Virus genome (UHGV): UHGV-0383221 | Length of the DNA stretch: 57,587 nt | Source: a virus | Strand: one strand, 5' to 3' | Part shown: in pieces, positions 4,275 to 55,060 of the stretch | Numbering within the stretch: the stretch's first letter is position 1 | Layout of the letters: each line of letters starts with the position of its first letter | The notes under the pieces: model-generated | What the model was told of the DNA's origin: nothing | The model's input: the letters and a program-made list of their open reading frames with translations, nothing else | Database searches by the model: none | Translations under genes and position numbers: made by a program

Positions 4275-4997
4275 CTAAGAAATAATAATAAACCTTCCAT
4301 ACCCTTTAAGCTGTTCTTTCAAATACTCTTTGATAGACGCTGTTGCATGGTTCTTCCACTCTCCTCCATCAGCCTCGAATATCGCACACTGGACGCCTTC
4401 ATACTTATCTGATTTCATTCGGAAGATAAAATCACTAGCAGGCTGCCGGACTTCTTGAAATGTCCTGTATGGCCTTAAGCGTACCGGATTAGGCACTTTT
4501 GCGTCTGTCTTAGATGAGATTCCGCTTTTAACAGTGGCCTTTTGAGTGACCCCATCATCTCCGTATTCAGCCACAGTTCCATCTTCAACCGTTCCAGCAA
4601 ATTTCAATACCAACGCCCGATCTGTATCGGAATCATCCATAAATTTGGATTGCAGACCAATACAGAAGTTCTCATGCTCTATAAACTTTCCAAACGGAAA
4701 CATTGGCACCTGGGCATTTACAACTACCATGTTTTCCCTGATTCTTTCATTGTCAAGCTGGGAATACAGTGCTACCTTAGTGGGATTCATAACATGAACA
4801 ATCATCTTATCCGCCATAGGATCAATGTTACCTTTTATGTAATCCACAAGACTGGTGAGGGTATTCATTTCTATTTCCTGGGCCTTAGGATTAAATGTAA
4901 TACGCGTTAACTCCTTATCAGAATATGTCTGGTTTCCAATCTCAGTAATCACCGGTGCCTTTAATCCTACAATGTACTGTAATGCCTCTTTAATCAT
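4275..4997 (-). CDS. hypothetical phage protein (240 aa)
   Basis: Long intact ORF with good coding character. No motif recognised. Confidence 0.5.
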   Translation of the reverse strand: MIKEALQYIVGLKAPVITEIGNQTYSDKELTRITFNPKAQEIEMNTLTSLVDYIKGNIDPMADKMIVHVMNPTKVALYSQLDNERIRENMVVVNAQVPMFPFGKFIEHENFCIGLQSKFMDDSDTDRALVLKFAGTVEDGTVAEYGDDGVTQKATVKSGISSKTDAKVPNPVRLRPYRTFQEVRQPASDFIFRMKSDKYEGVQCAIFEADGGEWKNHATASIKEYLKEQLKGYGRFIIIS

Positions 4998-5013
4998 AGT
5001 CCTTATCCTCCTC

Positions 5014-5466
5014 TTAAGCCTGCCTTATGGCCCTAAAATCAACTACAACGTTCTTTTCAACTGTTGGTTCTTCTAAAACCTCACCGGTACTGGTATCTAT
5101 TGTCTTTCCATCAACAACTGCTTTTCCAGCCTTCTCCTGCACTGCATTCCAGTCATTAAGGGACATCTGACCCTTAACCTGTTTTCCGTATTCTTCTGCA
5201 TAAACCTCTCCGGTATCTAAATCAGTTCCAATTGACATCCGGGTAACAATGGGGCTAGAATGTGCCAGTTTCTTCTCAACTACCACATCTACTGCTGTAT
5301 CATCCCGATCTTCGTTTTGCTGGAATGAAATCTTGATTGTAATTCCTCTCTTATTTTTCCATGGTGTATTCGGATCCTGCATATTCTGTAGTACCTCATC
5401 CATTGCTCGGTCTACCTTTTCCTGCAGGGCACCACCTGCAAATGTTTCCAGATTTACCTTTGACAT
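5014..5466 (-). CDS. hypothetical phage protein (150 aa)
   Basis: Intact ORF in the operon, 16 nt from the upstream gene. Confidence 0.45.
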   Translation of the reverse strand: MSKVNLETFAGGALQEKVDRAMDEVLQNMQDPNTPWKNKRGITIKISFQQNEDRDDTAVDVVVEKKLAHSSPIVTRMSIGTDLDTGEVYAEEYGKQVKGQMSLNDWNAVQEKAGKAVVDGKTIDTSTGEVLEEPTVEKNVVVDFRAIRQA

Positions 5467-5681
5467 TAGTCTTCTCCTCCCTCGTACTTTGCATTCTTAT
5501 TGGCAAACCCCGGTAACCTCAATTTCTGTAAAGTATTTGCCATCTTTTCAGCCAAGCTTATCCCAGGTGCCTTCTTAACACGCTTAGCATAAGCTCTATT
5601 CTCAAAATTCCTATAAATACTATCCGCTCCATTGTGATATGAATAGTGACTACGCTGCATATGTTTAATTCTTCCCGACAT
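5466..5681 (-). CDS. small basic protein (71 aa)
   Basis: Lys/Arg/Tyr-rich small ORF. Its stop overlaps the start of the next gene by 1 nt. Confidence 0.35.
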   Translation of the reverse strand: MSGRIKHMQRSHYSYHNGADSIYRNFENRAYAKRVKKAPGISLAEKMANTLQKLRLPGFANKNAKYEGGED

Positions 5682-5690
5682 GTTCTCCTC

Positions 5691-6002
5691 CTATAAATAA
5701 TTTATTTTGTATCGCCGCATAAATACCGCTTTGGCTTCCTCCAGGCTATGACCCTGTGCACAATAATTCCGTTCAAAAATAGCCTGTCCCAACATTCTTG
5801 ACAATTTTTCTGCTGCCGGATTATCATGTATACGCTCTAACAAACTTCCCATATTATGGTTCTTGTTGCAGGACGGAATAATCAATCCATCCTGATCAGC
5901 CAGTACGCGAAGAGAATTTCCAAAAATCAAATGATGATCACATTCCTTTAGGCCACCGCAAAAGAAACAGATTGTATCATATTCTGTTACAGTACTTTTC
6001 AT
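5691..6002 (-). CDS. Cys/His zinc-binding protein, HNH-like (putative)
   Basis: CFFCGG...CDHHLIFG...PSCNKNHN resembles an HNH / zinc-finger core. Sits next to the recombination genes. Confidence 0.35.
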   Translation of the reverse strand: MKSTVTEYDTICFFCGGLKECDHHLIFGNSLRVLADQDGLIIPSCNKNHNMGSLLERIHDNPAAEKLSRMLGQAIFERNYCAQGHSLEEAKAVFMRRYKINYL

Positions 6003-11433: not shown

Positions 11434-11593
11434 AAGCTCCTGCGCTACCAACGCAGAAGCTTTCACATAGATACTATTGCCTGATTGAGTCAATGCAATA
11501 ATATAGGCCTCGTAAACCTACTCGTATTATATCATTTGACTTCAAAAATGGCAATGGATGTATTTTGATTACTCATTTTTAGGAGGATATGAT

Positions 11594-12967
11594 ATGGCAG
11601 AAGCAAAACAACTTCCTTCCGGTTCATGGCGTTCCTTGGTATATACACATAGTGAACAGGTGTATGATGATTTAGGGGCACCTGTTCGTTACCAGAATGG
11701 GAAGTTAAAGAAAAAGAAAATGTATGAATCTTTCACAAGTACTCTTCCCGGAAAAAAAGGGAAAAAAGAAGCCGAACGGATGGCCAGTATCTTTGAGGCA
11801 GAAATGGAACGCAAAAGCCGTCCTGAAAGCTGCACTGTCTCTGATGCTATTGATAAATACATTGCATCCTGTGATGCATTGTTATCTCCGACTACCATCC
11901 AGGGATACAGAAAGATGCAGCGTAATGGTTTTAAAGGTATCATGAATATGAAGCTAAAGGACCTTACTACCGAACGGCTCCAAGAAGCTGTAAACGAAGA
12001 AGCTAAGCGGACATCAAAAAGAAATAAGACCAACCCTAAGCCGATATCCGCCAAAACTGTTATCAATGAGTATGGCTTATTAACTGCCGTATTTCAAAAG
12101 TATTACAAATCATTAGATTGCGCTGTACGACTTCCCAAAAAGGATGAAGTAATTAAAGAGCTTCCACCACCAGAAGTTATATATAATATTGTCAAAGATA
12201 CCAAAATAGAACTTGCTGTTATGTTGGCAATGTGGCTCAGTTTTTCTATGTCTGAAATAAGGGGGCTTACCAAATCAAAATCTGTAGATGGTGATTATCT
12301 TACCATCCGTGAAGTGGTCGTTGATGTGGATGGAAAACCACTGCGAAAAGGACAAGCCAAGCAGTCCACTCGCATAAGACGCCATGAAATTCCTCCCTAT
12401 ATAAAAGATTTAATTGACAACGTAGAAACCGATCAGCTTATTACATTAAGTGGACATGCAATATATTGTAGATTCGTCAGATTAATGCAAAAAAACGGAC
12501 TTCCACATATGACATTTCATGATCTGCGTCATATCAATGCATCTGTCATGGCTTTACTCCAGATTCCGGATAAATACGCCCAGGAACGCGGCGGATGGAA
12601 AACAGACTACACAATGAAGAAGGTATATACCCATACTTTCAGTCAAGGACGGTTGGAAGCAGATAATAAAGTTAATGACTACTTTGAGCGATCATTAAAC
12701 CTTGAAACTGAAAATAATACCCCTATATGTGTTGGAAAAATATCAGATACAGATTACATGTTCGTAGTTAATGGATTACAGCGTGTTGTCCGAATTGGTG
12801 ATCGGATACAAATAAAGTATGAGAAAAACAAAAATCTCATCAATGCCCGCGGCTATCTTACTAGTGTTAATTTAGATGAGATGATGCTTGGAAATAGAAA
12901 GTTCCTTATGCGTACAGTAAGAGATTTTATTAATTTGCCACAACACGAGCCACAACACGAAAGTTGA
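11594..12967 (+). CDS. int: tyrosine recombinase / phage integrase
   Basis: C-terminal catalytic region with HDLRH (TFHDLRHINAS) and a downstream tyrosine (KKVYTHTF). Start taken at ATG 11594, 7 nt after an AGGAGG RBS; the ORF track starts at 11558. Followed by an att-like repeat. Confidence 0.7.
   Translation: MAEAKQLPSGSWRSLVYTHSEQVYDDLGAPVRYQNGKLKKKKMYESFTSTLPGKKGKKEAERMASIFEAEMERKSRPESCTVSDAIDKYIASCDALLSPTTIQGYRKMQRNGFKGIMNMKLKDLTTERLQEAVNEEAKRTSKRNKTNPKPISAKTVINEYGLLTAVFQKYYKSLDCAVRLPKKDEVIKELPPPEVIYNIVKDTKIELAVMLAMWLSFSMSEIRGLTKSKSVDGDYLTIREVVVDVDGKPLRKGQAKQSTRIRRHEIPPYIKDLIDNVETDQLITLSGHAIYCRFVRLMQKNGLPHMTFHDLRHINASVMALLQIPDKYAQERGGWKTDYTMKKVYTHTFSQGRLEADNKVNDYFERSLNLETENNTPICVGKISDTDYMFVVNGLQRVVRIGDRIQIKYEKNKNLINARGYLTSVNLDEMMLGNRKFLMRTVRDFINLPQHEPQHES
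12937..12962 (+). repeat. 26 bp direct repeat, copy 1 (GCCACAACACGAGCCACAACACGAAA; itself two CCACAACACGA units)
   Basis: Exact copy again at 13141-13166. Copy 1 forms the last codons of the integrase gene. Confidence 0.6.
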
Positions 12968-13706: not shown

Positions 13707-13810
13707 GGAATAATTGGCTGATCCGGTAGCCCATCTTATATTATTTATATTTACATGTGTTATATAATCTAAACAGCCGGGGATACTAACCTAAAACGAG
13801 AGGTGATCAC

Positions 13811-14621
13811 TATGCCAGCAGCGCACAAGGGAGCAATAAGTTTTGGGCTTGTACACATTCCTGTAGCATTACACACAGCTACACAGGACAACGATATACA
13901 CTTTAATCAGCTTTGCAAGGAGGACGGGTCCCGGGTAAAGTATAAAAAAGTCTGTGCCAATTGCGGCAAGGAAGTAGGCACACAGGATATAATTAAAGGG
14001 TTTGAGTTTGCGCCAGGTCAATATGTGACAATGACTGATGCAGATTTTGAGAAAGCCAAAACCGAAAAGGACAAAACAATCCAAATCCTACATTTTACAG
14101 ATATCCACAACATACGTCCCATCTATTTTGATAAAACGTATCATGCAGTTGTTGAGGCTGGCGGGGATAAAGCCTATGAATTACTCCGCAAGGCCATGTT
14201 AGATGAGGGTAAGGTGGCGATAGCCAAGACTGTAATGGGGCAATCAGAAAAGCTACTCTGTTTGATTCCTACGCCAAAGGGGATGCTTGTTGAAACTCTA
14301 TTTTTTGCGGACGAAGTGAAAGAAATCCCCAAGGAACCAGCGCACCCAGAATTGCAGCAGCAAGAACTGGATATGGCAAAGATGCTTATTAACTCCATGG
14401 ACAAAGAGTTTGAGCCAGAATTGTATCATGATGAATACCAAATAAGGCTAAGGCAAATTATAGAAGCTAAAATAAACGGTCAGGAAATTGTTAATGCACC
14501 AACAGAGCATCAGGACAACGTAATCGATATCATGGAGGCACTGCAGCGTAGCCTTGCGCAGGTATCAGACAATAAGCCTCCGACCAAACGTAAGCCGCGC
14601 AAAAAGGCTGCAACAGCATGA
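13811..14621 (+). CDS. ku: Ku protein (NHEJ DNA end-binding)
   Basis: N-terminal MPAAHKGAISFGLVHIPVALHTA is the hallmark bacterial Ku start. Basic Lys-rich C-terminal tail. ATG at 13811 with a GAGAGGTG RBS; the ORF track begins at an upstream GTG, 13803. Confidence 0.8.
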
Positions 14622-15568
14622 TGGACCTCTTTGACAGTAAAAATATTAAACCAATGCTGATCGGAAAAGAGATGGCTCCATTTGATGATCCAAACTATAT
14701 CTATGAGTTAAAATGGGACGGAGAACGGTGTGTGGCCTATTTGGAGCCAGGTAAGCCGCCAGAGTTACGTAACAAACGTAACGTCCGTATGCTATCCAAA
14801 GTACCAGAGTTGGCAGAAATCAGTAAGCAGGTCAAAAAACGTTGCATTTTGGATGGCGAACTTTTTATCCTTAAAGATGGACGTCCTGACTTTTCCTTGA
14901 TCCAGCGCCGCAGCCTTATGTCAGACCGGTTTAAAATCGAATTAGATTCCAAACATAATCCTGCTACATTTTCGGCCTTTGATATCCTGTACTATGACTG
15001 TCAGGAAACCATGCTCTTACCATTGATGGAACGCAAAGCTCTACTTGACAAATCTATTACAGATGGTCCCCGTATGGCTATCTCGCGCTATGTGGATGGA
15101 CAGGGTACACCACTTTTTGATTTTGCTATAGAAAGGGAACTGGAAGGAATAGTTGCAAAGGTCAAAGACAGTATCTACATCCAAGAAAAAAGGACCACAG
15201 ATTGGATAAAGATGAAGGTTATGATGGAGGATGATTATGTAGTATGTGGATATATCCTAAAAAGCAACCACATGACCAGTATTGTCCTGGGACAGTACCG
15301 GGGCAATACATTAATCTATAAAGGCCACGTTACCATGGGTGTCAGCGGGCAGGCGTTTGATATCATCTCCAGACATTCCACGCTCCCTGCTGCCCCATTT
15401 ATCGCATACCCGGCAGGCCACGGTAATGACCGGGCCGTCTGGCTCTCTCCAGATCTTGTGTGTATAGTCAAGTTTATGCACCGTACAAAATCTGGAGGGA
15501 TGAGACAGCCGGTATTCAAAGGATTACGTTTTGATAAATTGGCAAAAGAATGTATTGAAAATGTTTAG
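14618..15568 (+). CDS. ligD: ATP-dependent DNA ligase, LigD ligase-domain type
   Basis: Motif I ELKWDGERCVAY (K-x-DG-x-R adenylation lysine). 316 aa, ligase domain only, no polymerase or phosphoesterase modules. Start overlaps the Ku stop (ATGA). Confidence 0.75.
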   Translation: MMDLFDSKNIKPMLIGKEMAPFDDPNYIYELKWDGERCVAYLEPGKPPELRNKRNVRMLSKVPELAEISKQVKKRCILDGELFILKDGRPDFSLIQRRSLMSDRFKIELDSKHNPATFSAFDILYYDCQETMLLPLMERKALLDKSITDGPRMAISRYVDGQGTPLFDFAIERELEGIVAKVKDSIYIQEKRTTDWIKMKVMMEDDYVVCGYILKSNHMTSIVLGQYRGNTLIYKGHVTMGVSGQAFDIISRHSTLPAAPFIAYPAGHGNDRAVWLSPDLVCIVKFMHRTKSGGMRQPVFKGLRFDKLAKECIENV

Positions 15569-16377: not shown

Positions 16378-17220
16378 TTATTCCCCCAACCCCGGCCACC
16401 GCAGCGCCCCGTCCTGATCGGGCGTCAACACCACCGTATCCATGGACAACTTGCCGTCCTGATCCAGATAATACCACTTATCACCGCTCGCCTGTAGGCC
16501 CTTTACCATTGCCCCATCAGCCCCCAAGTAATACCAATCACCCTTGTACTGATACCAGGTGTTGATCACCATGCGACCGGCGCCGTCAAACCAGTACCAC
16601 TTGCCGTCTGTATCCAGATACCAGCTGTTGCGCACACAATCTCCTGTGTTGCCCAGGTAAAAGCTTCGGGATCCATCTTCGTTCTGTCTCCATCCTGATA
16701 ATTTAGGTTCCTCCGGCTCCATCACTGCATCATCCTGTATGTATCGTTTTACAGCCACCAGACCCTTCCTCCAGCCCCCAGATGCCCAGGAGTTATACCG
16801 GCTCTTGCAGTAGGCCGCCAGGTCTTTGTAGGACGGTCTGCCTGATCCATGTCCGCAGATGATACCATCTCCGCAGTACATCTCCACGTGGCCGATCCGC
16901 TTTGGCCTGCTGGCATCCGTACCGGCAAACAGCAGCATGTCTCCTGGCCGTAACCGGGACGTGTCAGGGATGCCCTGGGCTATGTCTGCATCCACCGTGG
17001 TCAGTTTGGCAGAGTTGTACATGCCCGCGGTATTTGTGATCCCGAAGCCTTGCCCTGTCTGCTGATAAGCGTAGCAGATGGATGATGAGCAATCACTGTA
17101 GTAGTTGCCGTCCTTGTATGCCTTATAGCAATAATCCCGCAAGGACTGGCTGTATATGTTGCGGCCTATGATCTCTGCGTACTTGTCGATCACGGCCTGT
17201 CTCCTTAATAATGCTGTCAT
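16378..17220 (-). CDS. endolysin: NlpC/P60- or CHAP-type peptidase + cell-wall-binding (choline-binding-type) repeats
   Basis: N-terminal Cys/His catalytic residues (CSSSICYAYQQTG... GHVEMYCGDG). C-terminal repeated GDxWYYLxxDGxM motifs (DGKWYWFDGAGRMV, GDWYYLGADGAMVKG, DKWYYLDQDGKL). Confidence 0.7.
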   Translation of the reverse strand: MTALLRRQAVIDKYAEIIGRNIYSQSLRDYCYKAYKDGNYYSDCSSSICYAYQQTGQGFGITNTAGMYNSAKLTTVDADIAQGIPDTSRLRPGDMLLFAGTDASRPKRIGHVEMYCGDGIICGHGSGRPSYKDLAAYCKSRYNSWASGGWRKGLVAVKRYIQDDAVMEPEEPKLSGWRQNEDGSRSFYLGNTGDCVRNSWYLDTDGKWYWFDGAGRMVINTWYQYKGDWYYLGADGAMVKGLQASGDKWYYLDQDGKLSMDTVVLTPDQDGALRWPGLGE

Positions 17221-24395: not shown

Positions 24396-26627
24396 CTATC
24401 CCTCCTGTCCTACGGCTTTTCTGGCCTTAATCGTGCCAGACAATGCCCCTCCATTGAAATTCAGCTTATGCTCGTACAACTGCACTTGCAGCCCATCTAC
24501 ATATCGATTCTCTAGGAATACAATATCCCCTGCATCCAGCCTCGGTTCTCCGCGGTACGCTATGTCGTACTCAATGTCATTTTTGAAATAGTTCCCCAGC
24601 CAGTCCGCCTGCAGCTGTGCCAGGTCCTCCTCGCTGATTAGCGGATTGCTCCACTCCTCCACGGTGCCGGTTGTATTGATGGCCTTGGAATATAGCTTAC
24701 TGGTCACCACATAGGCCTTGCCGTCCACCACAAACTCATGCTCCCCGGTCAGCCTTGATACGTCCACGGATGCATAATAGTTACTGCTGCCTGTGATGGC
24801 AAGTGGCTGCCCATCAGCTGTGGCCGTGATATCATAGGACGCTTCGGAAAAGTAAAATGTATATATGTCATAGTCAGTTACATCTACCGTCTCCTGGAAG
24901 ATGTTTTTGACCTCATCTGTCTCACCATAGATGCTCCGGACCACATCCACCCGGCTGACCTTTTCCTTTTGCCGCCCAACCGGCGTCTTGGTCATGACAC
25001 GGTAATCCATGTTGTAATCCGTCACATCACCAAAGACTACAGAATCCACAAAGATCCTGCTGTTGGGCCGCCCCTGGGTAAACTCAAACTCTATCGTGTC
25101 AAATTGCGGAAACTCATGCTCTATCAGGTTCTCAGGGCCAAACGGTCCCGGCACCACATAGCTTTCCTGCAATGCCCCCTCAAAGTAGGTATGTATGATC
25201 ACACCCTGGGCCGGGTTGCTGGAAAAGTTAAGGAGCAGGCTGTAATAGACCATAGCTGCCTCAAGTACGATGGTAAACTTTGGATTGCTCTGGAAGTTCC
25301 CGGCCCCATCCGCAACCTCCGCAGATGCAAACCCGGCGGCCAGATATTGACCGGATCGCGGCAGGAAGTACATGGTCCCGTCTGCTCTCCAATGATCCTG
25401 CGACATAGTGGCATACTCATACTTTGTCACGCCATTGACCACGGACGGGAGGTTGCTCCATGGTGCTGCATCCTCTGACTGCACGATCATGCGCTCCGGG
25501 GATATGACAGTCACAAAAGCTGCCTGGATGCGGATGATTCCCTTCCGGTCCTGATACAGCTTGCACCGGCCTGCATTGGCAATGATCTGCAGGCATTCCT
25601 TGTGTGTCACGCAGGGCAGCGGATTGTATACCGTGACCTTTGTCAGGTACTCATCCAGTTCATATGCCCGTTCGTCCAGTCCGGCGTCCGTCAGGACATC
25701 CAGTGCCAGATCATACAACGTGATCCCTTCCGGGCGGTACAGGCCCCGGTAATATATGTCACTTAGATCATCTATCTTATCTTTGCTGTTAAAACTCATC
25801 ATGGTATCATCTGCTTCCCAATCGGACAGATAGGTGACACAGCCGTCCATCCATACCGTCTTATCATACCGCACATCATACCCATAACGGACCGTGACCT
25901 CTTGCCCCACTTCCAGGTAATGGATGGCACTGGCTTTGTTCTCTACATCAAACATGCGGTTGTAATTCTCAATCTGCAGGCTGAAATCTACCGTGGATAA
26001 CTCCTCCGTCACCGGGCTGATGTATTCGGTTTTGGTGGATTTCATGATTTTCTTATTTTCAAAGCTGATACCTATACCCATAAGCATCTTCTGGATCCGC
26101 AGCCTCCCCTGCCCATTGACCATCTTTGTAGGCGTGATCAGCAGGTATTCCGTCCCGTCAAATATCTCATCGGTTGTCCAATAACTCAGTGTATTGCCGG
26201 TATATTCCACGGTTTTGATCCCATTGGTAATACTAAAATCCACCGGGTAATTCCGTCCCCAGTTGATGGTCAGGCCGCGGATATCATAGGCAGCCCCAAA
26301 CGTAAAGCAGATAGGCCCCAACAATCCCTTTGAGATAACACCATTGTTGTACAGGTAATCCACATCCTCAAGTCGAGGTGGAAATACCATGGATCCATCC
26401 GCCCTCCAATGATCCTGCTCCAGGGTGGCATATTCCAGTTCCACGTCATAGTTGTCCAGGAGCCGTGTAAAATTGGATAGGTAGCTGTATTCAGCACCAT
26501 GTTCTGCTGCCACGGAGGAATCCTTCTGGGCTACCTGATTGATGACACCTATGGTTACTACCATGTAGGATTGACTACGCAAATCCCGTGACATTGCCTG
26601 CTTATACTCGGATGATGCCTTTTGCAT
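24396..26627 (-). CDS. tail-associated (Tal-like) large tail protein (743 aa)
   Basis: Long beta-rich protein directly downstream of the Dit-like gene. Confidence 0.5.
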   Translation of the reverse strand: MQKASSEYKQAMSRDLRSQSYMVVTIGVINQVAQKDSSVAAEHGAEYSYLSNFTRLLDNYDVELEYATLEQDHWRADGSMVFPPRLEDVDYLYNNGVISKGLLGPICFTFGAAYDIRGLTINWGRNYPVDFSITNGIKTVEYTGNTLSYWTTDEIFDGTEYLLITPTKMVNGQGRLRIQKMLMGIGISFENKKIMKSTKTEYISPVTEELSTVDFSLQIENYNRMFDVENKASAIHYLEVGQEVTVRYGYDVRYDKTVWMDGCVTYLSDWEADDTMMSFNSKDKIDDLSDIYYRGLYRPEGITLYDLALDVLTDAGLDERAYELDEYLTKVTVYNPLPCVTHKECLQIIANAGRCKLYQDRKGIIRIQAAFVTVISPERMIVQSEDAAPWSNLPSVVNGVTKYEYATMSQDHWRADGTMYFLPRSGQYLAAGFASAEVADGAGNFQSNPKFTIVLEAAMVYYSLLLNFSSNPAQGVIIHTYFEGALQESYVVPGPFGPENLIEHEFPQFDTIEFEFTQGRPNSRIFVDSVVFGDVTDYNMDYRVMTKTPVGRQKEKVSRVDVVRSIYGETDEVKNIFQETVDVTDYDIYTFYFSEASYDITATADGQPLAITGSSNYYASVDVSRLTGEHEFVVDGKAYVVTSKLYSKAINTTGTVEEWSNPLISEEDLAQLQADWLGNYFKNDIEYDIAYRGEPRLDAGDIVFLENRYVDGLQVQLYEHKLNFNGGALSGTIKARKAVGQEG

Positions 26628-27046
26628 TACTCAATCACCCCACAGTCTATAAGGTTATATCTGCAATCAGTATATGCAATTGGCAAATGCGTTTCTTTAT
26701 CAAACCAATACGGCTTCGCGCTTCTATCTCCCGGGTACATCTTGATAGTAATCCAGCTATTGTTAACCATATCTGGAATTGTCGCAATCACAAAATGCCC
26801 TTTAGAGTCTACTCTTGTTTTTGTAAATTCTTTAAGTATAGAAGACCATGTGACAGCATCTAAATAGGGCCAAAGTAAATTGTTAAGCTTGTAATTGTCT
26901 CGTCCAACCACCTGCCCTACAACTTCACCATTTGCATTTCGTCCACTACTCACAAATGTGGATACAATGAACTCCAGACCACGTGCCGGCGCAGGAAACG
27001 GTTTTCCATTTACAGTAATTATTGATTCCAATTCAATCACCACCAA
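26627..27046 (-). CDS. distal-tail (Dit-like) small tail protein (139 aa)
   Basis: Its stop overlaps the Tal-like gene's start codon by 1 nt. Position and size fit a siphovirus distal tail component. Confidence 0.4.
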   Translation of the reverse strand: MVVIELESIITVNGKPFPAPARGLEFIVSTFVSSGRNANGEVVGQVVGRDNYKLNNLLWPYLDAVTWSSILKEFTKTRVDSKGHFVIATIPDMVNNSWITIKMYPGDRSAKPYWFDKETHLPIAYTDCRYNLIDCGVIE

Positions 27047-27125
27047 TCAAAAAAAGAGCACCAATTAACCCGTTGCGATTAACTGGTACTCTAGGTACTC
27101 TCATTATTTAAGAAGGAAGGAAAAT

Positions 27126-27929
27126 CTATCCCACAGCTCTATCCTTCCCAAGAAATTTATTTATAAAATACTGTTGTCCTTTTCCTGTCACCAAAGTTGT
27201 CCTGGTTAGCCGAACGCTACCATCCGGGTTATCAATTGCCCTTTCTTTTACTTCAAACAAACCTAATTCCATAGCCTTCTGAGTAGGCATCCTGCGCCGG
27301 TCCCCATTCTTAATTAGGTATCCATTGTCATACATCCACGTAAATAATCTGTTCTGGCCAATAGGTACACCGTTCTGAGAAATCAGTTTTGCCAAATTAC
27401 CAATAAGAATTGATTCTTTACTGGCAGCTACAGCATCCGCAAAGATAGCCTTTGGTTTCATTGATTCATTCTCTGCCTCCAAGGCCCTTCGCTTTTCACG
27501 TTCTTCTTTCAATGCCGTAAATGCCTTGATTGCCAAGTCAGGATCATCCAGCAAATCATCAACTGCATACATACCATGTCGCCGAATGGTTTTTAGGATT
27601 TCTTTGACCTTTTTCTTGAACTCCTTTGCAATCGGCTTTCGGCTCAGCATCAGGACTTCATACAGCCCTTCTTCGGTCAAAAACCATAATTCAGAACCAC
27701 TCGGATTATTTATCGTAGTGCGGATTTTAACTTTCTCATCCTCATCCACGGATCTGAGCATTCCTGATACATCGTAATACCCTTGCCCTGTTTTGTTAAA
27801 GTCAATCCACTCTGCCACATCCCTGGCCATAAACAATGGCTGCTCTGGTGTTCCGTAAACCCTAAAGTTCTTCCCTAATACTTCCTGTTCCTTAATAATT
27901 GATAATTCGCCCATATTATCACTCTCCAT
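27126..27929 (-). CDS. phage antirepressor (Bro-N + KilA-C domains)
   Basis: N-terminal ELSIIKEQEVLGKNFRVYGTPEQPLFMARDVAEWI is a Bro-N domain. The C-terminal half resembles KilA-C (ILIGNLAKLISQNGVPIGQNRLFTWMYDNGYLI). Confidence 0.6.
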   Translation of the reverse strand: MESDNMGELSIIKEQEVLGKNFRVYGTPEQPLFMARDVAEWIDFNKTGQGYYDVSGMLRSVDEDEKVKIRTTINNPSGSELWFLTEEGLYEVLMLSRKPIAKEFKKKVKEILKTIRRHGMYAVDDLLDDPDLAIKAFTALKEEREKRRALEAENESMKPKAIFADAVAASKESILIGNLAKLISQNGVPIGQNRLFTWMYDNGYLIKNGDRRRMPTQKAMELGLFEVKERAIDNPDGSVRLTRTTLVTGKGQQYFINKFLGKDRAVG

Positions 27930-28190
27930 AATAAGTGGGGTGTAGAGGGACTTAGTGCTACCTCACGGTAGGAGCCCGACCTATTAGTGACTACCGGTAT
28001 TTCCCCCAGATGCCTTTCGCAATCTGGAGGAGACGAAGCAAGTTCGGAGCATACCCGAACAGGACTTTTGCTTCTGTATCCCGGAGAACGAAAAAATCGC
28101 TCAATCGGGATACTACTTGCGGCCCCGATTAAGCGACCTTATGAATATATTATATACTATTTGCATGTGGATTTCAATGACAATTTTATC
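27930..28190 (-). ncRNA. GC-rich structured leader / candidate structured RNA upstream of the antirepressor gene
   Basis: About 260 nt noncoding at about 50% GC with several perfect stems: GTTCGG-agcatac-CCGAAC, CTACC-tcac-GGTAG, TATCCCG...CGGGATA. Confidence 0.25.
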
Positions 28191-28718
28191 TTATAAAGGC
28201 ATAAGTGAAGCGTTAATTTTAATTAAGTTTTTAACAATTTGTTTAACCTTATTACTACCCCAAATTTTATATAATAGCTCTTCAAAATTTTTCTGATTAT
28301 TTATTTCTAATTCCGTTTGTACTTCTATCTCTTGTGCAATTGACTCATCCAACGCAATCGATACCGGATAGAGCATTATATCATATGCAATAATCATAAT
28401 CCTATATTTATATTTAGGCGTTGCGGTAGATGTTAAGTATAATTCATATGCCATCTTAGGATCTTCTCCAGCACTCCCCAACACATTTTGAACATTAAAA
28501 TCTTCTCCGATTATTTTTCCAAAGCTTCTCATCACAGATAATCCAGCTTGAGATGTATAGCTATGATATGGTCCATCATATTCTGATATTCGTGCAATAA
28601 TTCTACCGCCTGAATTATTATTCAATATTTCACACTGATCCAGTATTATATCCCTTGGTATAACAATGCTATTATCGTCCTCTTCATTAAAAAAATTCTT
28701 ATCCATTATGCTTGTCAT
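28191..28718 (-). CDS. unknown partner protein (175 aa) translationally coupled to the EEP-family gene
   Basis: Its start overlaps the EEP gene's stop by 4 nt (ATGA). About 30% GC. No motif recognised. Confidence 0.5.
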   Translation of the reverse strand: MTSIMDKNFFNEEDDNSIVIPRDIILDQCEILNNNSGGRIIARISEYDGPYHSYTSQAGLSVMRSFGKIIGEDFNVQNVLGSAGEDPKMAYELYLTSTATPKYKYRIMIIAYDIMLYPVSIALDESIAQEIEVQTELEINNQKNFEELLYKIWGSNKVKQIVKNLIKINASLMPL

Positions 28719-29545
28719 TGTAGCCTCTCCTCCTCAATAGAAAAACAAATTGGTAAATGATCACTAACTTTCTTAACATTCGGCTTTCCATTGCTATCAA
28801 TCAAAGACTCTTCATTTATATTACGAATAATTTTTAATGTGTCCCTCAAGAAACACTCTACCATACTGCTACTAAAAATTACTTGGTCGTAAATATTCCA
28901 AAAAAAATTAGTCAACTGAGAATTATTATAAAAATAAGTGCAAACAGGAGACTTCGTAAATTCCATCAAATTCCACATTGGATTATAGTACATTTCATAC
29001 TCCACTTCCCTTACCTTTCTTTTCTTGTCCTTCTTAACTTTATTCAGAAATGGTAAAGCATGAAGACAATCAGCCTGATAGCATGCCCGATCGAATGGAT
29101 TGAAATTAAAATCACCAATAATTATTACATTATCAATGGTTTCTTCAGTGCGTACTTCAACTAGCCCCTTTACTAATCTTCTCGTTTCATCCTTTTGCTC
29201 ATCTTCAGACCAGATACGACATTTACTAATAAAGTGAACACCTGCTATTAAGACCCTTTTTTTAGAGATTTCCATCATATATAATGAAAAGTGCCTGTTC
29301 TGATCTCGTATAACTGATATTTTGATACGTTTATCGTGTATCAATCGTATTCTATTGGCACCATCTATCACAATAGCTGGCGCAAAATCTCTTTTTTCCT
29401 TTGACAATAAATTACACAAGTTATTCAAATCATTAGGGTACTCTGACAAAACCACTATATGACATCTATTTTCAATAATTGCAGAAACAAGATATGTATC
29501 TATGTCTTTATTATTATGCGTATTCCAATACATAACCCCTATCAT
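28715..29545 (-). CDS. endonuclease/exonuclease/phosphatase (EEP) family protein
   Basis: EEP signature blocks are all present: N-terminal MYWNTHNN (beta1 Asn), VVLSEYP (Mg-binding Glu), IIIGDFNFNP (GDxN), and C-terminal VSDHLPI (SDH catalytic His). Confidence 0.65.
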   Translation of the reverse strand: MIGVMYWNTHNNKDIDTYLVSAIIENRCHIVVLSEYPNDLNNLCNLLSKEKRDFAPAIVIDGANRIRLIHDKRIKISVIRDQNRHFSLYMMEISKKRVLIAGVHFISKCRIWSEDEQKDETRRLVKGLVEVRTEETIDNVIIIGDFNFNPFDRACYQADCLHALPFLNKVKKDKKRKVREVEYEMYYNPMWNLMEFTKSPVCTYFYNNSQLTNFFWNIYDQVIFSSSMVECFLRDTLKIIRNINEESLIDSNGKPNVKKVSDHLPICFSIEEERLQ

Positions 29546-29603
29546 ATCTACTTCCTCTTTCGCATATGGTTCACAAAAATCTTACTTTTTCATCAATTGC
29601 GAA

Positions 29604-29954
29604 CTAATCTTTATCTAGTTTTGTGATCATATTGCAGACAGGGCACTGATACTCTCCGCAAGCGGCATCCTCCATCTGTATCATTTTGTCGTCTTTTCCA
29701 TAACAAGTAGAACAATATGGTATTTTTCTATCATCCTCCTTTAATGTTATATAAATCCCATTGTGCCGCTCAATATTCTGCTGTCTGTATAAATCTCCCT
29801 TAAGCTTTGCATTTTCCTCCTGCAAGCGCTTAATTTCGGACTGCATATCAAGGGCCTGGGCTCCCAAGTCCAATAGTTGCCTGTATAAATCGATATTATC
29901 CGCCTGCTGCACTATTTTAGCTACGTCCTTTATTCCTTCATATAACCCCATCAA
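29604..29954 (-). CDS. coiled-coil + C4 zinc-ribbon small protein (116 aa)
   Basis: N-terminal heptad-rich segment (EIKRLQEENAKLKGDL). C-terminal CSTC...CPVC zinc ribbon. 58 nt upstream of the EEP gene. Confidence 0.45.
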   Translation of the reverse strand: MMGLYEGIKDVAKIVQQADNIDLYRQLLDLGAQALDMQSEIKRLQEENAKLKGDLYRQQNIERHNGIYITLKEDDRKIPYCSTCYGKDDKMIQMEDAACGEYQCPVCNMITKLDKD

Positions 29955-30053
29955 AATCCCCTCCCTTATGATATCTCAAGAATACCATATAAAAAAGGTA
30001 TTGTAAATATTTTGCAAACATAAGAAAAGCCACCTTTCGGCGGCTTTGTTCTA

Positions 30054-30590
30054 CTATTTACTTTTCTTAAGTCTCCTATAGCCAGCACTATAAACAAAGG
30101 AGCAGATAACCATTAACCAACCATAATATTTTAAATCTTTAAAAATTCCATTATATACATAGCCTATCAAAAAACCGTATACCAGTAATATCAGAGCTAA
30201 GACCATTGGAATCTTAGGGTTTCCAGTTTTTCTAGTAACAATGCTTACAATTCCAATGATTATCATGAGTAAGCCGGTAAAAGTCCCGATTAATCCGTCA
30301 GAGCCATTCCCTCCTTCCAGTGCATTAACCATCCCGGCGGCACAAGACTGAAATAGCACCATTGCCGAAAAAACTATAAATATAATTCCAACAATAAGCC
30401 TTCCCGTTGATGAATATCCATTTTTTAAATCTTTTGCGTTATTGACTTTTGAAAATGACTTTGCGTTAGCATACAAATTTTCATACTCCTGTTTTTTACT
30501 ATCTACTATCACAGGACAGCCACAATGTGGACAAGCAGACGCCTTATCCGAAATTTCTTTACCACACTCAGAACATTTTATTAATGCCAT
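30054..30590 (-). CDS. zinc-ribbon + four-transmembrane-helix membrane protein (178 aa)
   Basis: N-terminal CSECGKE...CPHCGC zinc ribbon, then four hydrophobic helices. A terminator hairpin follows (AAAGCCGCCGAAAGGTGGCTTTT then TTTTCTTATGTTT on the minus strand). Confidence 0.5.
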   Translation of the reverse strand: MALIKCSECGKEISDKASACPHCGCPVIVDSKKQEYENLYANAKSFSKVNNAKDLKNGYSSTGRLIVGIIFIVFSAMVLFQSCAAGMVNALEGGNGSDGLIGTFTGLLMIIIGIVSIVTRKTGNPKIPMVLALILLVYGFLIGYVYNGIFKDLKYYGWLMVICSFVYSAGYRRLKKSK

Positions 30591-30655
30591 AAAGACATAT
30601 CCCCCTCCTATTTGATGAAGCTATTATATCAAAATAGGAAAGGGAAGTAAATGCT

Positions 30656-33600
30656 TTAGATCGTCCTAAAATTGAATCCACCACGGCGCACCACTTTGTC
30701 CGTCTGCTTGACGAGTGTCCTCCCGTCCATATCAACATGTGTTTCAATAATTGCGATATCGCCATTCTGTGCATATGATGAAAGTACTTCGCTCATGGCC
30801 TTTGAAACAGCATTGTATACACCACTTTCAATCCCTGCCACTATCTGATCATTGTTTGCAACCGCAGTTCGTCCGCCAATCCTGCCCACTAACTCAGGCC
30901 CGCGTTCCCTTGCAAGGAACATTTCCCCAGTGTTCGGAAATCCACCGGTAGCAAATCCTCTTACTGGTGAGTTTGTACCATAATCCCAATCATCACTATC
31001 ATCTAAGCCGCCGTCACTATCAAACAGAGATTCAATTCTTCTCTTGATACCATCAATAAAATTATCAAAAACCGTCTTTGCTGAATTTATGGCCAGTTCA
31101 AATCCTTTTTTGAATGCATTAGGGAGTTCCTTTAGAGCATCCAACCAAGTATTATACGAAAACCATTTGGTTACATCATTGTCCCACCAAGCTTGGATAT
31201 CTAGTTTCCATTGAGAAACTGTTTCTGCAAACTTTTCAATGATTGCTGTTTTAATATGCCCTGCCTCAGTTTTCCATGTTTCTAAATCAAACCATTTTGC
31301 CACATCATTAGTCCACCAATTACTAAGGTCTGTTTTCCATTGGCCTACTGTTGAATCCCATTTGGTCTTGATGGCTTTTTTAATATTATCTGCTATTCCT
31401 TCCCACTTTTCAGTTGTAAACCATGGAGATACATGCAAGTCCCACCAAGTCTGAACATCAGATGACCACTGACCCACTGTTTCATCCCACTTAGTTTTCA
31501 AGCTAGTTTTTATGGAATCGTATAACTCAGACCATTTCTGAGTGGTAAACCAAGGTGCAATATGATCATCAAACCATTCGTTTAGCGCATCCGTCCATTC
31601 GCTGAACGTGTTTCTAAATCCTTCAATAACTCCTTCTAGGATATACCCGCCCAGCGGCTTCATATTTTCGGCCGGTGAATGTATTCCGAAAATATCACAA
31701 ATTGCTTTTACTATGGCATCAAATAAATCCATTATAGGTTCTATCACCCAGGCAGCACCAGCAGCGATCCCATTAATGATTCCTTCAACCATATTGATTC
31801 CGAAAGAAGCAAAATCATACTCTTGGAAAGCTTCATCTGCTAGTCTAAAAAACTCTTTTGCACATTTGGCAAGTTCTCCTGCCACATCCCAATTAAAAAT
31901 GCTCTGTCCGAGTTGGTTCCAGAATTCTCCTACCCACGTCCCACCACGTGCAACCTCTAAGACAATTCCTGTAAGCGCGCCACCTATAGCAGCTCCAATT
32001 GGCCCTCCTGCTAAAAATCCGCCTCCAGCGCCCATGGCTAATATAAGTGCCTCTCCCATAGCATCGGATACTTTATCGCCAAAATTATTTCTAATGAATT
32101 CATCTACGCCATCTATTATTTTATTTCCAATTACATCAAATCCAGCAGTTCCCATAAAAGTAGGAGCAACTGATGACAAATCCAACGCTATACTTGGAAG
32201 CTTTATGGATATTCCAAGCAATGCCAGTCTAATTTTCTCTCCAACCAAATTTGCTAGGCTCTTAAATTTTAGTGCCGCTGATGTCTTTATGCTTGTAAGC
32301 ATGGCATTAGCTAAAACCGCACCCAAACCAGTAAATTTCAACGCTGCTACAGCTGTTATAATAGTGGTTTCTATTGGGGCCGCCTTAAACATTGCAGCAT
32401 ATAGTTCCAATCCAGCGTTAATAGCTTTCCAGATAGCTTTCCCGGCTTTCTCTGATAAATCTGAAAAGTCAAGTGTTTCAAAGAATTGCCCTATCTTTGT
32501 TCCAATCAGGCTCCAATCCGTTTCATCCAGCGCAGTGATTAATGCAGTTAAAAGTCCTCCTGCCCAAACATTGATTGTGGTAGCTAGTGCTGCAAAGTCA
32601 AAGGTGGAAAAGAAGTTATTAATTCCGCTGGCAATGGAAACTCCAAGATTCTCCCAATTAAATTCTTCTCCAAATGCCAATGCCGAATAAATAGCGGTAT
32701 TCAAAGCCCCAGCAATAGTTCTGCCTGTTGCCCCAAACAGTTCAGGGGAAATCAGCCCGTTTAGGAATTGGGCAAACCCTGTACCAAAGTTTCTTGCCCC
32801 CTCATAAATTCGATCCCAATCGATATTATCCATGGCTTTGGTAAGTGCATCTCCAATATAAGACCCAACAAATTCCCAGTCATGGTTCTTAATTGCATCT
32901 TCCAATTCTTTATTGAGCCTATCAATGAAACTTTCACCGGATGGAAGTTCGCCATAATCAACATCTGCTCCGCCTCCAGCACCACCGCCACCGGAACCAC
33001 CTTTATCATTAGGAGAAATAATATTCAGTTCATCAATACCAGAAGTTGCATTGGCAAGGTCTTTTGCTGCCTGTGCTGCCCCGCCTAGATTTCCTGCCAA
33101 TCCACCGGCTGCATCCTCTGCATCCTCAATTCCCCCTGCAATACCTCCACCAGCCTGGGCAGAATTGTCTCCAAAGATAAGTGCAGTAAGTGCGCGGAAT
33201 GCATTGGCAACCGTCTGCAAATAAGCCAGAAGTGTATTAAGTGCTCTCACAACATGGACAATGATATTTATGAACCCTTGCCCCATGGTTGTGCTGAACT
33301 GCTGGAACTGCAATTGAAGGATTCTAAGCTGGTTTGCAAAGGATCCCTGAGTACGCACAAAATCCCCGGCTGTCTGATCCGTGGTTGACATGATATACTG
33401 ATACCGGAGCATGGCCTGTTCTGCCAGGGTCATCTTATTGTAAAGTTTTCCGAATCCATTGGACAGAGCAAAGGCATTCAGGTTTGCAACGTTCATGTTA
33501 ACGCCTAGCTGCTTCATCGGCTCCGTTTCACCGGATACGGCAGAACGGATCTTATAATAGGCATTATCAGTACTGATATTATAAAAGGATGCAATATCTC

Positions 33601-34672
33601 CAGCCCTTCCGGTCAATCCCATTGCCATGTTCGCCGCATTCTCCTGCGCAACTCCCAAGGACCGATACATGGACATAAGGACACCGGAATACTGCTTTGC
33701 TGATAGTTCAGACACACCGAACTGTGTTGCCGTGGTCTTAGCGAATGCATTTGCTTTACTTGCCATGCTTCCGAATGCCACGTCAACCACGTTCTGAGTT
33801 TCTGTCATTGAGGATCCAAGTTCTATACAAGATTTTCCGAACTGGATAATCTGACGGATTCCCAGCATGATCCCGGCTGCTCCCAACATGCTCCTTATGG
33901 ACGCTCCAAAGGACAGAACCCCGGTGCTTGCCCTGCGGCCAGATGTTGATACCCGATCCATAGCAGTAGCAAGCCCATTGGAGGCCGAACGTGCCTTGTT
34001 CCCCTGGGATGCCAGATTAGCCAAAGCATTCGTAAGAGAAATGACATTCTGGCTTACCTTTGGTGCTTTGGACAGCGTATTCATAGTCTGTGTTAGGCTA
34101 TCTGCAAGCTGCGGTAAATTAGTAATAGCATTGGTAGTGGCCTTTCCACCAAGCTTAGCAACGGAAGATACAAACTCAGAAATATTGGGTAAAGGAGTAA
34201 TCCCACCAGCAAAGGCGTTATTCAGCGCTGCCACTGCTGGTCCAACACTGTGCATATTAACAATCGCCCTCTGCACTTGTACTCCGCCCATTTTTGCGAT
34301 ACTGGATGCAGCTGTAGCCAAGTTCCCGGCACCATTCGCAACGCCTGAAAGCCCCTGGAATCCTACCAGGAGCGAACTAAGTCCTCGCCCTACTGCCGCA
34401 AGGTTTGAAACGTCAACTCTATTAAGTTTGTCTATTCCATTGGAAATCCGGTTAAAATCAGCCGCTTTTATGCCCGATGCTGATTTCATGGAGACAGCCA
34501 GATTACCTACTCCATTACCGATTGCAGAAAACTTGCCAGTATCAAAACCACCAAGTGCTGCAGACATCTTTGAAAGGCTTGCCGACAGGCGGTCAAGAGC
34601 CTTATCGGCATTCCCAAGATTAGAAATTATATCTATACTTAATTCTTCAATACTTGCCATCTGAGTACCCAC
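30656..34672 (-). CDS. tail tape-measure protein (1338 aa)
   Basis: Very long, Ala/Gly/Leu-rich helical protein with internal W-rich repeats (WFTTQKW / WFTTEKW / WFDLETW). Downstream of the tail-chaperone genes. Confidence 0.75.
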   Translation of the reverse strand: MGTQMASIEELSIDIISNLGNADKALDRLSASLSKMSAALGGFDTGKFSAIGNGVGNLAVSMKSASGIKAADFNRISNGIDKLNRVDVSNLAAVGRGLSSLLVGFQGLSGVANGAGNLATAASSIAKMGGVQVQRAIVNMHSVGPAVAALNNAFAGGITPLPNISEFVSSVAKLGGKATTNAITNLPQLADSLTQTMNTLSKAPKVSQNVISLTNALANLASQGNKARSASNGLATAMDRVSTSGRRASTGVLSFGASIRSMLGAAGIMLGIRQIIQFGKSCIELGSSMTETQNVVDVAFGSMASKANAFAKTTATQFGVSELSAKQYSGVLMSMYRSLGVAQENAANMAMGLTGRAGDIASFYNISTDNAYYKIRSAVSGETEPMKQLGVNMNVANLNAFALSNGFGKLYNKMTLAEQAMLRYQYIMSTTDQTAGDFVRTQGSFANQLRILQLQFQQFSTTMGQGFINIIVHVVRALNTLLAYLQTVANAFRALTALIFGDNSAQAGGGIAGGIEDAEDAAGGLAGNLGGAAQAAKDLANATSGIDELNIISPNDKGGSGGGGAGGGADVDYGELPSGESFIDRLNKELEDAIKNHDWEFVGSYIGDALTKAMDNIDWDRIYEGARNFGTGFAQFLNGLISPELFGATGRTIAGALNTAIYSALAFGEEFNWENLGVSIASGINNFFSTFDFAALATTINVWAGGLLTALITALDETDWSLIGTKIGQFFETLDFSDLSEKAGKAIWKAINAGLELYAAMFKAAPIETTIITAVAALKFTGLGAVLANAMLTSIKTSAALKFKSLANLVGEKIRLALLGISIKLPSIALDLSSVAPTFMGTAGFDVIGNKIIDGVDEFIRNNFGDKVSDAMGEALILAMGAGGGFLAGGPIGAAIGGALTGIVLEVARGGTWVGEFWNQLGQSIFNWDVAGELAKCAKEFFRLADEAFQEYDFASFGINMVEGIINGIAAGAAWVIEPIMDLFDAIVKAICDIFGIHSPAENMKPLGGYILEGVIEGFRNTFSEWTDALNEWFDDHIAPWFTTQKWSELYDSIKTSLKTKWDETVGQWSSDVQTWWDLHVSPWFTTEKWEGIADNIKKAIKTKWDSTVGQWKTDLSNWWTNDVAKWFDLETWKTEAGHIKTAIIEKFAETVSQWKLDIQAWWDNDVTKWFSYNTWLDALKELPNAFKKGFELAINSAKTVFDNFIDGIKRRIESLFDSDGGLDDSDDWDYGTNSPVRGFATGGFPNTGEMFLARERGPELVGRIGGRTAVANNDQIVAGIESGVYNAVSKAMSEVLSSYAQNGDIAIIETHVDMDGRTLVKQTDKVVRRGGFNFRTI

Positions 34673-53898: not shown

Positions 53899-54955
53899 CT
53901 ACACATTAATTCGTTCCCTGATTGATCGAAGGGTGCGTGGCGTAGACTGTGCATAATACCGTGCTGTCACCCCTGGATCAGCATGTCCCATAATTTCCTG
54001 TATAGTCCCAATATCAACTCCTCTGTTTTTGAGATTCATCCCCAGCGTCTTGCGTGACTTATGCGGATATACCCGGCATGTTAGTCCAGCCCTCTTTCTT
54101 ATGGCTTTCAATATTGCTCGGAATCCGCAAGTAGTCATTTTTCCATACGGCTTTCTGGAGCGTGGGAACATATATGGACATTCATCTTTCCTTCTATTCA
54201 AATACAGGCCATAGTAATGACGCGCATCATCATCCAGATAGATAGTACGGTATCTTCCGCTTTTCTCTCCCTGTATCCATATATCCCCGGTCCTCAAGTC
54301 TATCTGATCCAGGGTTATATCTGCAATTTCTCCTATCCTGGCTCCAGTACTGCGCAGCACCTCCAGTAATGCCCTCTCACGGATATTTTTGCACGCGTCC
54401 CTTAACCTTGCAGATTCTTCCGGGCTGTAATAGTCTATCGGCTTAAGAGGCACTTTCTTGGCAGGTATAGACTCTACCGGATTATCTGTAATAAGCTTTT
54501 CAAGGCGCATCCATGTGAAGAATGCTGATAGAAAACGGCGTTCATTGTTGTAAGTACTGGGCTGATTTTTCTTTCCACCACCGGACACATTTCTAATTTC
54601 ATACCGCGATAAATACCAATCAATATCTGTGGTGTCCATCTGATCAAGTGATTTTGCAGTTATCTCTGTCAGCAATCTTCTTATGGCATTAAGATAGTTT
54701 TCTTTTGTTCCTCTCGTCAAATCACGTTTTTTAACCAGGAATAATTGTATTATGTACTGATTCCGCTGGCTTATATCATCCTTTCTCTCTGCCGGAAGAG
54801 TAGTTATCTCCTCCATATTCACTCTTACCAATTCCTGCTGCATTATTTTTTCAAGTATGCTAAGAGTTTGCTGCTCCATGATATATAAGGACATTGCTAC
54901 CAGTACATTGTTGATTATTTCAGCTTTAATTGTCTGTGTACTCATAATTATATCC
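53899..54955 (-). CDS. int: tyrosine recombinase / phage integrase (second copy)
   Basis: Catalytic region with R (TGARIGEI), HxxR (GHADPGVTARYY) and an RVYPHKSRKT segment. Start taken at MSTQTIKAEI (ATG at plus 54953-54955) with a GAGGAGG RBS 8 nt upstream. The ORF track extends to 55047 across a promoter-like inverted repeat. Confidence 0.7.
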
Positions 54956-54986
54956 TCCTCATTCGTATTGATTTTCACGTCTGAGT

Positions 54987-55060
54987 AAGGTATAATATAC
55001 TCAGACGTATTTACAGGAGCGGTGGAATCATCTTGGCGGGTGACCACCGCTCAGTTTTTA
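54987..55060. promoter_or_regulatory. inverted repeat ACGTCTGAGTA-N12-TACTCAGACGT enclosing TATAAT, then a GC hairpin GAGCGGTGG...CCACCGCTC + T-run
   Basis: Perfect 11 bp inverted repeat (54987-55018) with a -10-like TATAAT in its loop. Stem-loop at 55017-55052 followed by AGTTTTTA. Confidence 0.4.

Follow-up and report, generated by a model that had tools for sequence, protein, structure and literature searches.

What do the AT-rich genes do that lie between the tape measure gene and a Dit-like gene in the virus genome UHGV-0383221, of which one strand of 57,587 nucleotides (nt) was analyzed (hereafter the window)? A preliminary description had placed there a 2.4-kb, four-gene insert (28191-30590) corresponding to no named defense system, in which two zinc-ribbon proteins, one of them in the membrane, lead an enzyme of the endonuclease/exonuclease/phosphatase (EEP) fold and a small partner. 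The four open reading frames (ORFs) were found at the positions proposed for them and are all encoded by the minus strand. Gene calls made independently on the source contig, a viral OTU of 57,696 bp in ENA that occurs in several samples, concur except for the start of the second gene; we refer to them as ZnTM (30054-30590), CCZn (29604-29951), EEP (28715-29545) and partner (28191-28718; Table 1). We report that EEP and partner form a two-gene mobile cassette of two uncharacterized families, that this pair is probably a defense cassette of the effector-plus-regulator (abortive-infection or toxin-antitoxin-like) type, judging from its sequences and genomic contexts, and that the two zinc-ribbon genes and an antirepressor gene beside them are separate cargo.

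The stop codon of EEP and the start codon of the partner gene share an ATGA, as the preliminary description had read, and the ribosome-binding site (RBS) of the partner falls within the 3' end of the EEP gene (Table 1). Judged by this overlap, the two genes are translationally coupled. EEP homologues were collected by a word-indexed search (67 sequences) and then by a scan of one genome per species, in which 351 of 185,579 species encode an EEP relative; 80 of those loci were fetched. In 79 of the 80, a profile of the partner family detects the partner as the next gene downstream, in the orientation of EEP, and outside the window the distance from EEP stop to partner start is ≤31 nt. The exception is an Emticicia locus (L077), which, like the most distant viral and Acinetobacter-phage EEPs, has a tightly coupled downstream ORF of 138-228 aa with the invariant Tyr-Pro motif of the partner family; several of these distant downstream ORFs match the partner family at 65-90% hhalign probability. 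In IMG/VR, the pair was recovered by direct hidden Markov model (HMM) match in 24 of 32 viral loci. The converse scan of metagenome contigs, seeded with the partner, placed an EEP gene directly upstream in 58 of 63 assessable loci, and the remaining five (L185-L189) are copies of one decayed locus, with EEP split into two ORFs and the partner cut to ~92 aa in four of them and no EEP ORF detected in the fifth (L186). Distances among EEP proteins and among partners co-vary (r 0.88, Mantel p 0.001), the partner diverging faster, and from coupling and co-divergence together we infer a physical interaction between the two proteins.

Clustering of the four genes on each side of the pair returned no third conserved gene; the largest family of neighbors, found within four genes of the pair at 12 loci, is that of the integrases. 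Homologues of ZnTM, CCZn or the antirepressor were found in none of 89 other loci carrying the pair. Because the pairing is strict and no third gene is conserved, the system is one of two genes and not of four, and the cassette led by two zinc-ribbon proteins was not confirmed. That ZnTM, CCZn, EEP and partner act as one sensor, membrane and effector cassette is accordingly very improbable: all four do share a strand and an AT-rich block, and no terminator-like site was found among CCZn, EEP and partner, but synteny contradicts the arrangement (zinc-ribbon homologues in 0 of 89 pair loci), ZnTM has a promoter-like site and a terminator-like hairpin of its own, and the G+C content of CCZn differs (40% as against 31-32% for the pair). 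ZnTM homologues moreover occupy the same slot of four related phages, all without the pair (L196, L197, L201 and L203), and on this ground the earlier idea that a membrane protein is the partner of EEP was rejected.

The EEP protein is clearly an enzyme of the active type, as predicted from its intact catalytic set. All blocks of catalytic and metal-binding residues are present, namely N and E (blocks I-II), H/Y (III), D-x-N (IV), D (V) and S/D-H (VI), and across 34 homologues with 23-43% identity to the query no change was seen at W7, N8, E35, H104, G144, D145, N147, D220, S261, D262 or H263. The preliminary description had read this set (WN, E, GDxN, SDH) from the letters and had allowed that the key residues might prove not to be conserved; they proved to be conserved. 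The block III residue is His in this family, and it is Tyr in ExoIII. An AlphaFold model of the protein was confident (predicted local distance difference test (pLDDT) 92, predicted template modeling score (pTM) 0.91) and has the four-layer alpha/beta sandwich of DNase I and ExoIII. The Pfam gathering thresholds were not reached (24.3 against 27 bits for PF19580; 22.3 against 24.5 bits for PF03372), nor was there a match in NCBIfam (release 20, June 2026), and on these scores the protein belongs to a divergent branch that lies outside the curated Pfam models. Fold and profile neighbors included EEPD1, neutral sphingomyelinase 2, DNase1L3, the TRAS1 and LINE-1 endonucleases, ExoIII, TDP2, nocturnin, PDE12, CNOT6L and inositol 5-phosphatases. 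Identity to all characterized branches (among them also DNase I, CdtB, APE1 and the neutral sphingomyelinases) is 11-18%, none being clearly nearest, and the substrate can therefore not be read from homology; assignment of a substrate from the closest structure was tried and rejected, the branches being about equally distant. Neither EEP nor partner sequences contain a signal peptide or transmembrane segment, and the site of action of EEP is therefore predicted to be cytoplasmic.

The partner, which we predict to be an inhibitor or sensor of EEP, is a new stand-alone protein family. An exhaustive HMM search returned homologues in 620 clusters at 50% identity, and nearly all of the best 150 of these have the stand-alone length of 160-200 aa; the two longer ones among the 150 (P0318 and P0235) carry no Pfam domain. 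No Pfam domain was found in the partner itself or in 120 listed homologues, no NCBIfam assignment exists for members of the family, and the RefSeq label for both genes of the pair is "hypothetical protein". No fusion (Rosetta-stone) protein occurs among 189 fetched proteins. The family is consistently acidic (median isoelectric point (pI) 4.9). The partner model (pLDDT 79) is a sandwich of a helix, a four-to-five-strand sheet and two helices, and a fold search with it returned generic alpha/beta sandwiches and no informative match. Its low-confidence loop (residues 51-84) holds conserved residues; Y47, Y54 and a D-I-Q-x-x-L-G-E motif are conserved, and further invariant positions are Y103, Y105, R106, Y117 and P118. 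In a further reading, to which we give a small chance, EEP would be an abortive-infection effector but not a nuclease, and its target would be a small molecule or a lipid, such as NADP(H), a nucleotide cofactor or a phospholipid of the membrane, destroyed once the partner has read a signal. The invariant Tyr and Arg residues of the partner and its conserved flexible loop might then bind a phage protein or a nucleotide.

The contexts in which the pair occurs are diverse and point to defense. Its spread across phyla is sporadic (the 351 species include Clostridia, Heliobacterium, Syntrophorhabdus, Natronospirillum, Desulfococcaceae and Acidobacteriota). Its cargo sites in phages fall into three classes: before the Dit-like gene, before the small terminase gene (terS) and beside an integrase gene. 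The pair closest to that of the window (L090; EEP 70% identical) again lies upstream of a Dit-like gene, on a contig that ends inside the EEP gene so that the tape measure side is unseen, and in an Enterocloster citroniae prophage and a Clostridium estertheticum phage-plasmid the pair stands just upstream of the small terminase gene. It is also carried by a mobilizable element with Mob_Pre, TnpV and Fic genes and by a Bacillus cereus megaplasmid, where it stands beside DUF4365, RelA/SpoT-domain, integrase and SIR2 genes. One island combines it with SIR2, TIR, FRG, RdrB-like deaminase, SLATT_5 and NUDIX genes, and another with GmrSD and Fic/RhuM genes. In six genome loci (L014, L016, L024, L026, L049 and L066) the pair is part of a type I restriction-modification (R-M) operon of the order hsdM-hsdS-EEP-partner-hsdR, adjoining both hsdS and hsdR, with EEPs only 47-59% identical to one another; in a seventh (L123, 2094-14789) it again lies downstream of hsdS and upstream of hsdR. 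The window and most other pair loci do not have this placement. The search for the pair in other prophages and in defense islands that the preliminary description had proposed thus found it in both.

Two side observations concern individual loci. The seventh R-M operon (L123) also holds, between hsdM and hsdR, three SLFN_AlbA_2/HATPase_c_4 (Schlafen) genes and a gene of 311 aa that weakly matches nucleoside 2-deoxyribosyltransferase. In Acinetobacter phage vB_AbaSI_1 (L001, 4489-5818) a gene beside the integrase encodes a distant relative of EEP (24% identity). Its annotation (4489-5010) seems too short, for the protein match runs to 5363, where a 151-aa ORF starts; the two may represent the pair in strongly diverged form.

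The contexts (phage cargo, R-M operons and immune islands) suggest a defense reading; the defense function, the roles of effector and regulator, the substrate and the trigger are inferred as set out here. The pair is a mobile, self-contained two-gene operon, carried as cargo of a temperate siphophage between the tape measure and Dit-like genes, and its most likely role would be anti-phage defense of the lysogen. The effector would be a soluble, cytoplasmic, metal-dependent EEP phosphodiesterase or phosphatase with nucleic acids as the most plausible target, and the partner, a small acidic alpha/beta protein made in about equimolar amount through coupling, would keep it in check. Infection would free or activate EEP through titration or degradation of the partner, or through recognition of a phage component by it.

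The same properties could serve a plain toxin-antitoxin (TA) addiction module that stabilizes prophages, plasmids and islands, with EEP as toxin, the partner as antitoxin and no dedicated anti-phage role. In its favor are the small size and tight coupling of the two genes, their presence on mobile elements and plasmids, the acidity of the partner (pI ~4.9) and the partner-like ORF that follows every EEP seen. Against it, the partner lacks the helix-turn-helix, ribbon-helix-helix or AbrB kind of DNA-binding domain that type II antitoxins usually have, neither gene is intact in four of the five copies of the decayed locus, and defense accounts better than simple addiction for the deep links to type I R-M operons and immune islands. 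We therefore hold addiction as the sole role to be rather unlikely; it is also not exclusive with defense, as many TA modules also defend. The several occurrences in phages and prophages would likewise fit a role in counter-defense or takeover, in which EEP hydrolyzes a second messenger of immunity, or a nucleotide or cofactor of the host, and the partner is a specificity or regulatory subunit, on the model of the EEP enzymes PDE12, which degrades 2'-5' oligoadenylate, and nocturnin, which dephosphorylates NADP(H). These two are no closer to the window's EEP than DNases or apurinic/apyrimidinic (AP) endonucleases, however, and copies of the pair lie within R-M operons and immune islands of the chromosome, with no phage genes nearby, which is unexpected for an anti-defense gene. 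The obligate partner weakens the idea further; the anti-signaling enzymes that we know of (Acb1, Apyc1 and the ring nucleases) act as single proteins. We consider counter-defense distinctly unlikely.

Several points weigh against the defense reading. The EEP family is not basic (median pI 5.7), a weak argument against a DNase without specificity; no DNA-binding domain, which most type II antitoxins have, was detected in the partner by Pfam or fold search; linkage alone can produce both coupling and co-divergence; the association with defense genes rests on individual loci as examples; a recent description of the pair could have been missed; and a minority of loci lie among housekeeping genes (nadE/nrtR and polysaccharide genes). 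In five Lachnospiraceae metagenome-assembled genomes the pair lies between nadE and nrtR (L060, L064, L067 and L081) or, in one, beside nrtR as the only neighbor seen of the two (L062). Since the EEPs of these five loci are 80-97% identical, they represent one insertion event in a single lineage and no conserved association, and a functional link to NAD metabolism was set aside; the housekeeping linkage that had been named in advance as telling against the proposal was thus not found in conserved form. The loci are, with weak profile matches to ExoIII/Xth, what could be said for a housekeeping repair or metabolic EEP (an ExoIII-like AP endonuclease or an NAD-related phosphatase) acquired by chance. 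Such an origin is hardly credible, because the homologues score ~21 bits against a cut-off of 99 in the Xth models (TIGR00633/TIGR00195), only 351 of 185,579 species have the pair, the partner is always present, and the neighborhoods vary widely.

The pair and its neighbors were compared with known systems. No match at E ≤ 0.1 was found in PADLOC-DB v2.0.0 (2023) for any of the five proteins encoded between tape measure and Dit-like genes, and no PHROG was found for EEP or partner. Within PADLOC-DB v2.0.0 (2023), the Pfam cut-offs and NCBIfam release 20, the statement of the preliminary description that no named defense system is present therefore holds. An EEP-based defense system was not found in the defense-discovery literature, including Payne 2024 on embedded defenses and DefensePredictor 2026, a search that is weakened by the slash-written family name, nor in the component-modularity preprint or the P2/P4 hotspot paper. 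In connection with defense, EEP was mentioned only for the YprA helicases of ARMADA, which carry inactivated domains of this fold (YprA paper).

Partial likenesses exist to four kinds of system. The prrC gene lies in a type I R-M operon in the same layout as the pair in the six loci and L123 (hsdS upstream, hsdR downstream), and the placement therefore suggests a backup effector linked to restriction, as in PrrC/EcoprrI. The effector here has an EEP fold and is not of the PrrC type (ATPase plus anticodon nuclease), for which no PADLOC or Pfam match of that kind was seen, and EEP always brings its own partner; since most copies, including that of the window, lie outside R-M operons, the pair is autonomous. 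Colicin DNase-Im, barnase-barstar and RnlAB-type TA pairs similarly join an enzyme of destructive potential to a small acidic cognate in a coupled, mobile unit whose smaller protein diverges faster, and adjacent coupled genes (ATGA here, ≤31 nt elsewhere) recall type II TA systems in general. The pair differs in that both families are unrelated to those and in that the partner follows the enzyme and has no DNA-binding domain; its inhibitory role is a prediction. We know of no characterized EEP enzyme with such a partner. The fourth likeness, to the PD-T4-9 or SecB-like chaperone cassettes, is one of position, because a gene of this kind occupies the equivalent place just upstream of the antirepressor in a related phage (L196, below), and there is no sequence or domain relation to the EEP pair.

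Candidate two-gene defense cassettes now turn up in large numbers. If this pair protects, it would add the EEP fold as a core effector, no defense system with such an effector having been found described, together with a regulator family of ~620 sequence clusters; were the non-nuclease version true, an EEP-based metabolic or membrane effector would be new to bacterial immunity. The cassette is small, and thus easy to clone and mutate, and it is often found in Clostridia from the gut of humans and animals, a group in which immune systems have been little studied.

The place of the pair in the phage was examined by comparing 38 viral contigs with a related Dit-like gene. From tape measure stop to Dit-like start the distance in related phages is 29, 42, 66, 122, ~300, 588, ~870, 1202 or 6814 nt, and the proposed cargo hotspot is thus supported by a slot that ranges from 29 nt to 6.8 kb. 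In L196, the closest relative (87% identity in the Dit-like protein and 99% in the antirepressor), a ZnTM homologue stands beside the tape measure gene, the antirepressor beside the Dit-like gene, and other genes in the middle. Since the outer genes are shared with L196 and the middle differs, the outer genes are recurrent residents and the middle is exchanged; on this comparison the EEP pair is one exchangeable cassette of the slot. A SecB-like gene in the middle of L196 (5448-5858) matches PD-T4-9_C (E 4e-22), from which it follows that the slot swaps defense-type cassettes, and the gap between tape measure and Dit-like genes in this phage group could be mined for further defense genes. As a side observation, the SecB-like gene is preceded by ORFs of 204 and 86 aa, and the whole (4574-5858) may be a TA-chaperone-type defense cassette in place of the EEP pair.

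The insert is larger than had been described, 3.6 kb in length and with a fifth gene, which encodes a Bro-N/KilAC antirepressor. The tape measure flank of the proposed tape-measure/Dit/Tal order was supported by profile match (Table 1), and the Dit and Tal names rest on position; the PHROG matched by the Tal gene (phrog_13879) has no assigned function, and the DUF6711 match among these downstream genes is weak. The low G+C content of the block (28191-30590) was borne out at 34.0%, which makes it the most AT-rich 2.4-kb stretch on the contig (0.3% of 2.4-kb windows are as low), but the contig mean is 43.0% (standard deviation 4.3) and not the ~48% that had been given for the backbone. No structured RNA was found in the slot with Rfam, and the window has no close DNA relatives among deposited phages. 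Promoter-like and terminator-like sites were obtained from a consensus scan in which they were not enriched over shuffled sequence. The scan found no terminator-like site between CCZn and EEP, and its sites suggest, with that limit, that ZnTM is transcribed alone, CCZn, EEP and partner together, and the antirepressor apart.

Table 1. Features of the cargo slot and its flanks in UHGV-0383221 (positions in the window)
Feature	Position	Strand	Length	Remarks
Dit-like gene	26627-27046			Dit by position; phrog_1194 (PHROG without assigned function)
Variable cargo slot	27047..30655	.	3609 nt	Tape measure stop to Dit-like start
Bro-N/KilAC antirepressor	27126..27929	-	267 aa	PF03374 E 1e-34; PF02498 E 2e-13; phrog_130 E 2e-71
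Partner	28191..28718	-	175 aa	Acidic, pI 4.7; RBS GAGGAGGAGAGG at 28735-28724; predicted inhibitor or sensor of EEP; G+C 30.9%
ATGA overlap	28715..28718	-		EEP stop TGA overlaps partner start ATG; read from sequence
EEP	28715..29545	-	276 aa	EEP-fold enzyme; RBS GAGGAAG at 29557-29551; predicted effector; G+C 32.4%
CCZn	29604..29951	-	115 aa	Coiled coil and C4 zinc ribbon; phrog_1244 (without assigned function); G+C 40.2%
Promoter-like site	29979..30007	-		TTTACA-17-TATTCT with TG, upstream of CCZn-EEP-partner; consensus scan, not enriched over shuffled sequence
Terminator-like hairpin	30026..30047	-		After ZnTM; such matches no commoner here than in shuffled sequence
ZnTM	30054..30590	-	178 aa	Zinc ribbon and 3-4 transmembrane segments; PF13240 Zn_Ribbon_1, phrog_9418, hydropathy profile; G+C 35.4%
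Tape measure gene	30656-34672			phrog_1535, E 2e-87

Among the neighboring cargo, ZnTM had been described as a zinc ribbon fused to four transmembrane helices with a terminator of its own. The ribbon (CxxC...CxxC) and three clear hydrophobic segments were confirmed; the fourth segment is weaker, and the hairpin is present in a class of matches no commoner than in shuffled sequence. Judged by its occurrence in the four related phages, ZnTM is an independent cargo gene that recurs in the slot and stands outside the two-gene module. The C4 zinc ribbon attributed to CCZn is present (CSTC...CPVC). Its start is more likely the ATG at 29951, with the RBS AAGGGAGGGG and an independent gene call, than the TTG at 29954 (116 aa), and the one relative of CCZn that carries an annotation is an isolated hypothetical gene of a Latilactobacillus phage. 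CCZn is neighboring cargo that may be co-transcribed with the pair here, and it is not a conserved part of the module. A copy of the antirepressor gene adjoins the Dit-like gene in L196 as well. The intergenic region that separates it from the partner gene (27930-28190, minus strand, 260 nt, 45.6% G+C) contains a strong promoter-like site, TTGAAA-17-TATAAT, at 28177..28149, followed by an inverted repeat, AATCGGG (28130-28124) and CCCGATT (28109-28103), without an Rfam match.

The phage itself looks temperate, with two genes of the tyrosine-integrase family (11558-12967, plus strand, and 53899-55047, minus strand; one match weak and one strong) and the antirepressor. An NlpC/P60 endolysin with choline-binding repeats (16378-17220) fits a Gram-positive host. 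A Ku gene (13803-14621, plus strand; PF02735, E 2e-49) adjoins an ATP-dependent DNA ligase gene (14618-15568, plus strand; PF01068/PF04679), and the two are a phage-borne non-homologous end-joining pair. Further 2.4-kb windows below 38% G+C lie at ~7-11 kb and 43-45 kb, and these AT-rich stretches may be additional acquired cargo.

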